This document shows, piece by piece, positions 1,746-4,014 of a DNA stretch of 12,701 bases (positions within the stretch are counted from its first letter, which is position 1; each line of letters begins with the position of its first letter). The stretch comes from a virus. A program made the position numbers and the translations under genes. The stretch lies in the UHGV virus genome UHGV-0102869. One strand, written 5' to 3'. Below the pieces are notes generated by a model. It was not told the origin of the DNA. It saw nothing but the letters and a program-made list of their open reading frames with translations, and did not search any database.

Positions 1746-2107
1746 TATGCTCCAGCCTCCGGTGCTTTTGGCATTACTGCCCAGTGAGTGATATTGACGT
1801 TTTCAAGGTCCCCGACCTGAAATGTCCACTGCCATTCTCCGGTTTCTTTTTGTCCCCAGGTGTACCAGAGAGAACGCCAGCCAATTAGCCAGCCTTCTCC
1901 GTTAGCATCGAATAACAAAACACTTTCATTTGCTGGTGGCAGTTCAGTTGACACTGGTATTACTTTGTTTTCCTGTGCTGCACATTTAGCTTCAAGCGCA
2001 TCGAATTTACGCACCAGGTATTCAGCATCTGTTTCATTTACTTTCAGATCTCGCGGTACACATCTCCCACGAAGAAACCCTTCCATTTCGAAAACATTCA
2101 TGCGCAT
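1745..2107 (-). CDS. Small early protein, 120 aa, possibly DUF551-like (C-terminal ITHWAVMPKAPE resembles the THWMPLP motif)
   Basis: ORF with ATG at 2107 (alternative ATG at 2101 would overlap the upstream stop as ATGA); GGAG about 10 nt upstream. Family assignment is from motif memory only. Confidence 0.6.
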   Translation of the reverse strand: MRMNVFEMEGFLRGRCVPRDLKVNETDAEYLVRKFDALEAKCAAQENKVIPVSTELPPANESVLLFDANGEGWLIGWRSLWYTWGQKETGEWQWTFQVGDLENVNITHWAVMPKAPEAGA

Positions 2108-2634
2108 TTGCGTAACTCCGATAACTCGTTAAAGCGTTCCATAAACATCCCGTAGGCATGGCCCGATGTCAGTGGAATCACGTTGAACATCTCTGTTGCC
2201 GGGATACCTTCCAGTACAGGCCAGAAAGAGCCATCATCAAGCCCGAGATCGCGGCGTTCGGTTGCCAGCATGATGAGATCGGCATATTTCACGGGCGTAC
2301 TCATAACTGGGGGTAACCCGTATTTCTCACGGATTACGGCGTCTATTTTTTCTTCCATTTGTTTATAGTCAGGAAGAAGGCGTTTCAGTGGTGCGGGAAT
2401 GTCCTGGCAATACGCTTCTGTTGCATCATGCATTAACGCTTCAAAAGCAAATTTCTGCGGCACCAACTGGCTGCAAAGAACCGCATGTTGGGCGACGCTG
2501 TAGAAGTGCGAAAGATGACCGGCAAAGCGACAGATATTTGAAAGGGAAACCGCGATATCGTTAATATCGATGTCGTCTTTATTTATCCTGTCATAATAAA
2601 AATGCTTCCCGGAAAAAGTTTTAATAAATGACAT
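2098..2634 (-). CDS. yfdR: HD-domain phosphohydrolase, YfdR-like (5'-deoxynucleotidase family), 178 aa from the ATG
   Basis: Track ORF begins with GTG at 2661; the ATG at 2632-2634 is preceded by GGAGAA and gives 178 aa. The HD signature (ALMHDATEAY) and an upstream H...H are visible in the sequence. Confidence 0.8.
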   Translation of the reverse strand: MSFIKTFSGKHFYYDRINKDDIDINDIAVSLSNICRFAGHLSHFYSVAQHAVLCSQLVPQKFAFEALMHDATEAYCQDIPAPLKRLLPDYKQMEEKIDAVIREKYGLPPVMSTPVKYADLIMLATERRDLGLDDGSFWPVLEGIPATEMFNVIPLTSGHAYGMFMERFNELSELRKCA

Positions 2635-2730
2635 TTTGTTCTCCACGTATATGCGCTGCACCGCGCTGAATTCTGGTAAAAAGAATCCCTCACCATCCGG
2701 CGATTATTGAGTAAATTACGTTTCCATAAA

Positions 2731-2746
2731 TGCCCCCGCAGGGGCA
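2731..2746 (-). terminator. Short GC hairpin between the YfdQ-like and YfdR-like genes; possible weak terminator or attenuator
   Basis: TGCCCC-cgca-GGGGCA, 6-bp stem, followed on the minus strand by TTTATGG. Not folded computationally. Confidence 0.3.
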
Positions 2747-2761
2747 ATTGCAGTAATGAAA

Positions 2762-3586
2762 TCAGGCGGTGAAAGTACCAATAAAGGTTTCTACTTTGCT
2801 GTCCTTGAATTTCTCAACAAGCAGATCACGAAATTCGTTAGCCATTTCTTCCTGCACCGCCTCCAGCTGAATAATGCGCAGAACCAGTACAGGACGATCG
2901 CCAGTGATAATACTGAGGCGTAATTTAAACGGACGTTCTTTCAGACCTTCAAACGGAACGCATTTAAATTCAAATGCCACTGGCATAATGTCTTTGGTCT
3001 TCGCTTCGACAGACTCCATCAGGGAACGTTTGCCGCTGAAGTCATTATCTTCAAAATCAGCGGTCTGGTTTGCTTCAATCGTGATTTTACGGACAGCCGC
3101 AGCCGCTTTTGTTGCCTGAATAGCGTCACCATTAGCATCAAAGCCCACAAGATAGTCGGCCCAGTCTTCAATCCATTCTGCCAGTGACTTCTGGGAGTTA
3201 CGCTCGCCGTTAACAGACAACAGAGCAGAGAACGGTGCTGTCTTTTTCAGTTTGAGTGTGGCGGTGTTATCTGCGTGACCTGGTTCATCAATAGTACCCA
3301 GGTTAAGCACACTGACGGCACGCATATTATCAGCATCGATAAAGCAGCGGGTGCCTTCATCTGCAAGATCTTTAGAATAACGGGTAAAGTCATCGATGCT
3401 GGCAGTGGAAAGCGCACCACGGAAACGGAAGCGATTTAAATTAAATTTTTCCAGATCATGAATGCGGAAATTCTCAGGCAATGCCACAGCATCGGCACCA
3501 ATCTTACTGATAATTTCATTAACACCCTGAGCAGAAATAAGGGCATGGATTTGATTAATTGCGGTTGCGTCTAAGTTCTGAGACAT
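2762..3586 (-). CDS. yfdQ: YfdQ-like protein (DUF2303 family), 274 aa
   Basis: ATG at 3586 preceded by GAGGA. The 274 aa length and its position immediately upstream of the HD-domain gene match the yfdQ-yfdR arrangement I recall from the CPS-53 prophage. Confidence 0.75.
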
Positions 3587-3651
3587 AATAAGTCCTCACT
3601 ATATAAAGATATTCAGTGATGAGATAAATAATCAGTTAATTAAAAACGATA

Positions 3652-4014
3652 TTAACGACCTGCTGCGCGGAGTTTTCCGTCAGGTTCACCGGCAAGAGTC
3701 AGTAACTGTCCCTGGTCTTCCTGCAGAATAGTCAGGCGACCACCGCGATTGACATACATCGGCGTTTCGGTGGTGTCTTCTTCGGAAATTTTCCCGCGGT
3801 TAGTCGGGCGAACATATGAGAGTTTGTGTTTGATTTTCACACGGTTCTCATCAAATGGTTCGATTTCCAGGTTGAGTGAGACCTTACCTTTGGTTTTCGT
3901 GTTCATCACACCGGAAGCGACTTCACTGAGAACTGCGCCGATTTTGGTTTCAAATACGCCGCCGTCCAGCTCCCCGATAAATGCCTGCACATCAGTACTG
4001 CGTTCGCTAGCCAT
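3652..4014 (-). CDS. YfdP-like small early protein, 120 aa (start at the internal ATG MASERSTD...)
   Basis: ATG at 4012-4014 preceded by GAGGAG with a 7-nt spacer. The track ORF extends in frame to 4332, but that part is Cys/Arg-rich, has no comparable start signal and lies in the GC-rich region described in the findings. Confidence 0.7.
   Translation of the reverse strand: MASERSTDVQAFIGELDGGVFETKIGAVLSEVASGVMNTKTKGKVSLNLEIEPFDENRVKIKHKLSYVRPTNRGKISEEDTTETPMYVNRGGRLTILQEDQGQLLTLAGEPDGKLRAAGR

Follow-up and report, generated by a model that had tools for sequence, protein, structure and literature searches.

The yfdP-yfdQ-yfdR block of an Escherichia coli lambdoid prophage: a constant gene pair and an optional HD-domain gene in an early-left operon

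In E. coli K-12, the genes yfdP-yfdQ-yfdR-yfdS-yfdT (b2359-b2363) lie in the cryptic prophage CPS-53 (KpLE1). The first three are already catalogued, named in RefSeq, widespread and in part characterised, and their link to DnaA was published in 2016 (Noguchi and Katayama, 2016; PMC4776307). Here, the block is described in the UHGV virus genome UHGV-0102869, from a stretch of 12,701 nucleotides (nt) referred to below as the window, where it retains its native control region. Comparison with other phages divides it into two units, an obligate yfdP-yfdQ pair (P-Q) and an optional gene for an HD-domain protein, yfdR. The same yfd cluster is found at the same position in the lambdoid phages SfV (orf29-31), SfIV, mEp460, ST64B (sb35-37), phiNP and LLS (gp37-39), and the yfdR/yfdQ/yfdP cluster has been described as a frequent feature of lambdoid early-left operons (Zheng et al., 2025; PMC12315714). 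YfdQ of the window is 99-100% identical to its counterparts in SfV, SfIV and mEp460 and 57% identical to that of ST64B. These lambdoid clusters differ in the variable genes that lie 3' of yfdR (Ea22-like, DUF551, exonuclease). Stx2a phages such as ArgO145 carry P-Q directly after a RecT-exonuclease pair and have no YfdR homologue.

The effect of these genes on initiation was identified with the K-12 copies (Noguchi and Katayama, 2016). The segment yfdQRST is a multicopy suppressor of hda-185 over-initiation, and the minimal set that inhibits initiation at oriC consists of yfdQ plus yfdR plus one of yfdS and yfdT, with yfdP being dispensable. Therefore, yfdP-yfdQ-yfdR was not the unit tested. 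Purified K-12 YfdR binds DnaA domain I in a manner that depends on Phe46 and competes moderately for DnaA with DiaA and DnaB, and extracts oversupplied with YfdQRST inhibit oriC replication in vitro. The authors propose a role in host takeover, like that of lambda P, in the ancestral phage. Lambda P and SirA of Bacillus subtilis can be regarded as functional analogues of YfdR, being small phage or developmental proteins that bind DnaA and block initiation; SirA acts through the residue that corresponds to DnaA Phe46. In contrast to YfdR, an HD enzyme, lambda P doubles as the helicase loader and binds domain III of DnaA. The likeness is one of mode of working, and there is no kinship in sequence or fold.

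The window contains the left arm, immunity region and replication region of an E. coli lambdoid prophage, and the phage that hosts the yfd block is of the SfV/mEp460/ST64B type. Over the 3.3 kb tested (window 1400-4700), the DNA is 99.7% identical to E. coli strain AH04, in which the prophage is integrated beside tRNA-Thr/proA and the corresponding stretch is annotated in RefSeq as yfdP, yfdQ and yfdR. The genes run leftward on the minus strand in the order yfdP, yfdQ, yfdR, yfdS, yfdT, an excisionase-like helix-turn-helix gene and a P22-type integrase gene. The features of the block and of its first spacers are as follows.

Positions 3652-4014, minus strand: yfdP, 120 amino acids (aa), YfdP family, first gene of the P-Q pair.
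Positions 2762-3586, minus strand: yfdQ, 274 aa, DUF2303 / YfdQ family.
Positions 2731-2746, minus strand: candidate hairpin read from the sequence, UGCCCC-UGCG-GGGGCA then UUUAU, GC-rich, directly 3' of the yfdQ stop.
Positions 2098-2634, minus strand: yfdR, 178 aa, HD-domain phosphohydrolase whose K-12 orthologue binds DnaA.
Positions 1745-2107, minus strand: yfdS, 120 aa, DUF551 (PF04448 at 22.2 bits against a cut-off of 22).
Positions 1440-1745, minus strand: yfdT, 101 aa, named protein YfdT in RefSeq.
Positions 50-1213, minus strand: P22-type integrase gene.

A preliminary description, made from the letters of the window alone, had noticed three consecutive early-left genes of 120, 274 and 178 aa and had taken them for homologues of the CPS-53 genes yfdP-yfdQ-yfdR. 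The coordinates and lengths are exact when compared with the open reading frame (ORF) list and the sequence, and the homology is borne out by RefSeq, by profile searches and by 96-99% identity to the K-12 proteins (YfdP 118/120, 98%; YfdQ 272/274, 99%; YfdR 171/178, 96%). The full-length match of YfdR together with the same gene context makes it the orthologue of b2361. The three proteins match phrog_204, phrog_210 and phrog_318, respectively, with E-values from 1e-49 to 1e-120 (YfdP against phrog_204, 1.2e-49). YfdQ matches PF10065 (DUF2303) over residues 7-272 of 274 with 309.7 bits against a cut-off of 26.6 (E 2e-92). YfdP gave no match in the copies of Pfam and NCBIfam searched, the PF27127 model being missing from that Pfam copy; in a precomputed annotation, PF27127, the YfdP family, is carried by the cluster representative and 120 homologues. 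Of 5426 complete E. coli genomes, 3319 contain the 3.3-kb region in part or in full, and 1093 contain 80% of it or more. Public records with the exact sequence include at least 1000 contigs each for YfdP and YfdQ and 206 for YfdR.

Compared with K-12 CPS-53, the window has the same five genes in the same order, with the same lengths and the same spacers of 65 nt (yfdP-yfdQ) and 127 nt (yfdQ-yfdR). The difference lies upstream. In K-12, the block is severed from its native leader and PL. Nothing at the K-12 locus matches the window's 466 nt upstream of yfdP; yfdO/N/M stand there instead, in the opposite orientation. The left arm that surrounds the block in the window is apparently complete, with P22-type int/xis, repressor and operators.

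Whether the three genes travel together can be read from their distribution, and here the preliminary description, which had treated them as one block, was right about P-Q, always found together, and too generous about YfdR, a frequent but optional neighbour. In a phage collection, 184 records contain YfdQ and 180 contain YfdP, and the two share one taxon breakdown; the 333 records with YfdR-like HD proteins are distributed differently and include none of the Stx2a phages that carry P-Q. Among 11 diverse phage loci, five from Vibrio and the others from E. coli, Salmonella, Xanthomonas, Pseudomonas and Acinetobacter, all 11 have a YfdP homologue directly upstream of YfdQ, and only 3 have YfdR within 5 kb of the pair. 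Species-representative genomes supplied a further 80 loci. YfdP is present in all 77 of these with enough upstream DNA, and the two genes count as adjacent in 72; in the remaining five, the stop-to-stop YfdQ ORF extends upstream and defeats the distance rule, which is an artefact. A YfdR-like gene is present in 55 of 76 such loci (~72%), directly downstream in 50, whereas homologues of YfdS and YfdT are found in six and four loci, respectively. Apart from two with odd labels, the YfdR-positive loci all come from enterobacterial records; the eight clearly marine or other gammaproteobacterial loci, from Marinobacter, Photobacterium, Hahella, Kistimonas and Pontibacterium, all lack a YfdR-like gene. 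An additional scan of IMG/VR returned 80 loci that all carry a 99-100% identical YfdQ and hence are uninformative on diversity. In the window itself, yfdP stands directly upstream of yfdQ on the same strand with a 65-nt gap, in keeping with the pair as found elsewhere. Thus, the trio is a frequent and real block in enterobacterial prophages and is made of two units, an obligate P-Q pair and an optional HD gene.

The layout of the block fits this division. The 127-nt spacer between yfdQ and yfdR bears the candidate hairpin listed above and a further terminator-like site at 2703-2690, and its predicted fold has a minimum free energy of -37.4 (z -2.33). Downstream, the start of yfdS overlaps the stop of yfdR by 10 nt and yfdS overlaps yfdT by 1 nt, so that yfdR, yfdS and yfdT are probably translationally coupled. 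All five yfd genes begin with ATG preceded by a Shine-Dalgarno-like sequence, which is GGAG/GAGG for yfdP, yfdQ and yfdR. Mechanically called ORFs would begin further upstream for yfdR (GTG at 2661) and yfdP (ATG at 4332); the annotated starts agree with K-12 and RefSeq.

The sequence upstream of yfdP places the block under phage control through the following elements.

Positions 5445-5418, minus strand: PL-like promoter, TTGACA-16-CATAAT, 11 of 12 consensus matches in a promoter scan.
Positions 5402-5418 and 5422-5438, minus strand: operator-like 17-mers over PL, TGTAYC-N5-GGTACA.
Positions 6177-6193, 6194-6210 and 6227-6243: operator-like 17-mers of the same form, between the repressor gene and the cro-like gene.
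Positions 4150-4372, minus strand: STnc100-like structured RNA, Rfam RF02076 at 41.2 bits (E 1.5e-7), full model length.
Positions ~4198-4158, minus strand: terminator hairpin that ends the STnc100-like RNA, followed by a U-run.
Positions 4058-4156, minus strand: long hairpin with a ~25-bp stem and a near-invariant apical part, flanked by the leader terminator and the ribosome-binding site of yfdP.

The PL-like promoter sits just beyond the terminator of an S24-type repressor gene (5485-6159) and ~1.4 kb from yfdP. Judged by its sequence, the arrangement of promoter and operators is the classical lambda-style OL/OR layout for this immunity type. The preliminary description had placed the genes early-left, and the leftward PL-like promoter, whose operators are shared with the repressor/cro intergenic region, supports that placement from the sequence itself. 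The yfd block forms the coding part of this operon, which is under repressor control, and lies upstream of xis and int.

Between this promoter and yfdP lies a 456-nt leader (4015-4470, minus strand) that is strongly structured (fold z = -4.47) and absent from the K-12 locus. The leader RNA scores below the gathering score of Rfam STnc100 (41.2 bits against 47), as do the related loci, and is best called STnc100/PasD-like, resembling the prophage small RNA family STnc100. The sequence of its terminator stem differs in ST64B and Eeyore, with the stem kept and a T-run always following, and an alignment of five phages with a consensus fold finds compensatory changes at four stem pairs of the long hairpin. 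The leader is more conserved than the genes behind it; with ST64B, it shares 77% identity as DNA, compared with only 57% protein identity for YfdQ. In Cronobacter phage phiES15, part of the leader stands ahead of another left operon, kil-gam. Both observations indicate that the leader belongs to the control region and not to the yfd genes. RefSeq labels part of it as a frameshifted hypothetical gene.

The best-characterised product of the block, YfdR, combines an HD fold with the ability to bind DnaA. The preliminary description had noted a clear HD phosphohydrolase motif. In an alignment of YfdR homologues, H50, H69-D70, E73, D78 and D119 are invariant down to 40% identity. All metal ligands are retained, so ligand loss, which would have spoken against an HD protein, does not apply. 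The ligand residues line up with the YfbR segment HD..E....D and with Atu1052. YfbR (the E. coli 5'-deoxynucleotidase, PDB 2paq) and Atu1052 (PDB 2gz4) share with YfdR a common HD fold and the ligands H...HD..E....D...D, and the YfdR segment HDAtEay.qDiPaPlK aligns with HDAsEvltgDlPtPvK of YfbR. The closest solved structure is that of the uncharacterised Atu1052 (2gz4, E 1.7e-14), with YfbR at E 0.5. The HD fold stands, but the more specific label of 5'-deoxynucleotidase, given by the preliminary description and by the RefSeq product name, is weak. Against the YfbR equivalog NF003009 of NCBIfam, whose cut-off is 122 bits, YfdR reaches 21.9 bits, and by this score it is not a YfbR equivalog. 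Its scores against the Pfam models YfbR-like (25.7 against 25.9) and HD_3 (19.1 against 22.5) lie just short of the cut-offs.

The explanation favoured here, with some reservation, is that the early-left yfd block serves to dampen host initiation upon induction through YfdR, aided by YfdQ and YfdS/T. Upon prophage induction, PL would fire and the early-left operon would be expressed. YfdR, with YfdQ and YfdS/T, would then dampen initiation of the host chromosome at oriC by contacting the DnaA domain I surface around Phe46 that is also used by DiaA and DnaB. Such a block might leave host DnaB/DnaC free for the phage origin. The right-hand part of the window contains the following replication features.

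Positions 7390-8331, plus strand: O-like initiator gene.
Positions 7699-7762, plus strand: iterons, 4.3 tandem copies of the 15-nt unit TCTGACCCGTCAAAA, inside the O-like gene.

These tandem repeats are probably the iterons of the phage origin. No gene for a P-like helicase loader or a helicase follows the O-like gene in the window; the genes that follow encode a PerC-like protein, Dam methylase, a 108-aa LexA-like protein, RusA, KilA-N, DUF968/HNH and a Q-like protein. With an O-like initiator and no lambda-P-like loader, the block could spare host DnaB/DnaC for the phage. The preliminary description had described YfdR as a DnaA-binding inhibitor of initiation, which matches the published work on the K-12 protein, and had raised an early host-takeover function; that interpretation gains support from the K-12 DnaA work, from the intact genes in native order and from the operator-bearing promoter.

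Several points weigh against this explanation. The effect on initiation was obtained only from multicopy plasmids, deletion of yfdQRST had no phenotype, and the authors themselves concede a possible overexpression artefact (Noguchi and Katayama, 2016). The gene yfdP is not needed in the sole functional assay, and a terminator-like hairpin stands between PL and yfdP. In addition, the 333 phage records with YfdR-like HD proteins include Bacillus, Caulobacter, Rhizobium and Stenotrophomonas phages. Since the family is found in phages of unrelated hosts, its family-wide role is probably catalytic and not the binding of E. coli DnaA.

The last point leads to the main competing explanation, which has a reasonable case without being the probable one: YfdR would serve as an enzyme, a nucleotide phosphohydrolase altering the (deoxy)nucleotide pools soon after induction, and DnaA binding would be a side property that emerges upon overproduction. 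The invariant metal ligands are as expected of an enzyme, phrog_318 (E 8.6e-109) is annotated as 'deoxyribonucleoside 5' monophosphate phosphatase', and the homologues extend to phages whose hosts have an unrelated DnaA domain I. Nucleotide phosphatase activity has also been reported for K-12 YfdR (Zimmerman, 2008, as related in the papers that cite it). Conversely, the same citing account gives nucleotide affinities far below those of YfbR and states that the function 'remains elusive' (PMC4776307). Deletion of yfdR in an engineered strain left the yield of CMP unaffected, with no gain, in a metabolic-engineering study, and the binding of purified YfdR to DnaA is specific, through Phe46.

Dampening of host initiation by YfdR, the explanation favoured above, concerns yfdQ-T and leaves P-Q to be accounted for as a unit of its own. 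The pair extends from enterobacterial lambdoid prophages to phages of Vibrio, Xanthomonas, Pseudomonas and Acinetobacter, with fold relatives in actinophages. In Vibrio, Xanthomonas, Acinetobacter and Stx phages, its neighbours are genes for Erf, RecT, exonuclease, SSB or PolA, and in distant phages, P-Q is always found amid replication and recombination genes (Erf, RecE-like/DnaQ-like exonucleases, SSB, PolA, DUF2800/DUF2815). This neighbourhood suggests a part in DNA transactions without defining a specific activity. YfdP-YfdQ is a separate two-gene unit of far wider occurrence, and its constant setting suggests that it may act on replication/recombination intermediates or on the host proteins that handle them. 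In Acinetobacter phage 4316 (locus L093, 4986-5835), the DUF2303 gene is annotated as two ORFs and is apparently frameshifted; it lies between the DUF2800/DUF2815 pair and DNA polymerase I, with a YfdP homologue directly upstream.

At 50% identity, the YfdQ family falls into 1838 clusters. In the best 150, nearly all members are ~265-285 aa long and single-domain, with the whole profile covered, and no domain fusions were found. The near-invariant polar residues are E46, R52, R56, T61, H104, Q132, E140, D141, R166, R223 and R237. A solved homologue exists as PDB 9o7m, 'YfdQ Protein', an entry of 36 chains that matches the window protein over its full length (E 1.2e-44, and 5.4e-87 to the family profile). 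It is ~40% identical to YfdQ of the window and 98.8% identical to the protein of the CP2-like Xanthomonas phage MET23-P3. A literature search found no paper on 9o7m, DUF2303 or a YfdQ structure by electron cryomicroscopy (cryo-EM). From the deposited entry, YfdQ may form a very large assembly. The AlphaFold2 (AF2) model of YfdQ (predicted local distance difference test score, pLDDT, 76.5) gave a best E of 0.06 and template modelling (TM) scores <0.2 against a Foldseek copy of the PDB to 2026-04-08 that is without 9o7m, and among viral models it matched only other DUF2303 proteins, one of them from a Gordonia phage; the fold of YfdQ has no recognisable relative. YfdP is modelled as a long helix packed on a three-stranded sheet (pLDDT 75), and neither its family profile nor the CP2 homologue gives a match in the PDB. 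A relation of YfdP to NTF2-like/CaMKII-hub proteins was considered, and the weak matches (E 0.01-0.1, TM ~0.3) were not counted as evidence.

The size and spread of the YfdQ family invite a different explanation, in which the yfd block counters the immunity of the host or of rival phages, YfdQ being an oligomeric sponge or decoy and the HD enzyme degrading a signalling nucleotide. Signalling nucleotides are common substrates of HD enzymes, the genes are predicted to be expressed early, the YfdQ homologue was deposited with 36 chains, and the family is phage-restricted, single-domain and very widespread. Against this, the conserved neighbours are replication/recombination genes and not known anti-defence loci, and none of YfdP, YfdQ, YfdR, YfdS and YfdT matches a family of the defence-system library, which does not cover anti-defence proteins. 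This explanation is considered unlikely.

Even less can be said for P-Q(-R) as an unrecognised recombination module that replaces Red/Erf/RecT, which appears most improbable. The early-left operon of the window has no gene for a strand-annealing protein, an exonuclease or a RecBCD inhibitor, and P-Q holds the usual position of Rec genes and adjoins such genes in other phages. However, P-Q coexists with full sets of Erf/RecT, exonuclease and SSB in CP2, D478, ArgO145 and MET23-P3, and a hidden recombination role has likewise been judged unlikely by others (Zheng et al., 2025; PMC12315714). Profile comparison of YfdQ with Erf, RecT and DUF2815 (Gp2.5-like) by hhalign returned probabilities of 0.1-0.2%, and the Foldseek search of the PDB returned no Rad52 or Red-beta match. 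Taken with the coexistence of full Rec modules, these comparisons largely refute YfdQ as a cryptic recombinase. Finally, Chi (GCTGGTGG) occurs eight times in the 12.7 kb of the window, where shuffled sequences predict 0.41; six of the sites lie on the plus strand. This excess fits the class of phages that rely on host RecBCD.

Positions 1932, 6692, 8845, 10097, 11246 and 11517, plus strand: Chi sites.
Positions 9201 and 11646, minus strand: Chi sites.

One further gene stands between PL and yfdP, antisense to the early-left transcript.

Positions 4580-5074, plus strand: gene for a 164-aa protein, GC 0.39-0.42.

Its product belongs to phrog_6315 (unknown function), has a hydrophobic stretch resembling transmembrane helices (putative) and has no match in Pfam or the defence-system library; by its sequence features, the gene looks like a moron. 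In the early-right regions of mEp460, ST64B and a Pseudocitrobacter prophage, C4 antisense RNA and isrK RNA score above the gathering score, at the three loci below; in the window, neither is found at the gathering threshold.

Locus L085, positions 2710-2898: C4 / isrK match.
Locus L087, positions 1617-1805: C4 / isrK match.
Locus L131, positions 2134-2335: C4 / isrK match.

Although the three genes are an ordinary find, the comparison adds to what was known of them: it separates an obligate P-Q pair from an optional HD gene, shows the block with its native control region, and points to a solved homologue for which no paper was found. The pair yfdP-yfdQ is among the commonest phage gene pairs in enteric prophages without an assigned function, and yfdQ is required for holding back host initiation in the single functional study. 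As a tentative proposal, YfdP-YfdQ could represent an undescribed class of phage factors that acts on host initiation or on replication/recombination intermediates, with YfdR as a lineage-specific partner. For following the role of the pair during induction, an intact prophage such as this, which still has its own promoter, leader and immunity region, is better suited than the rearranged remnant in K-12.

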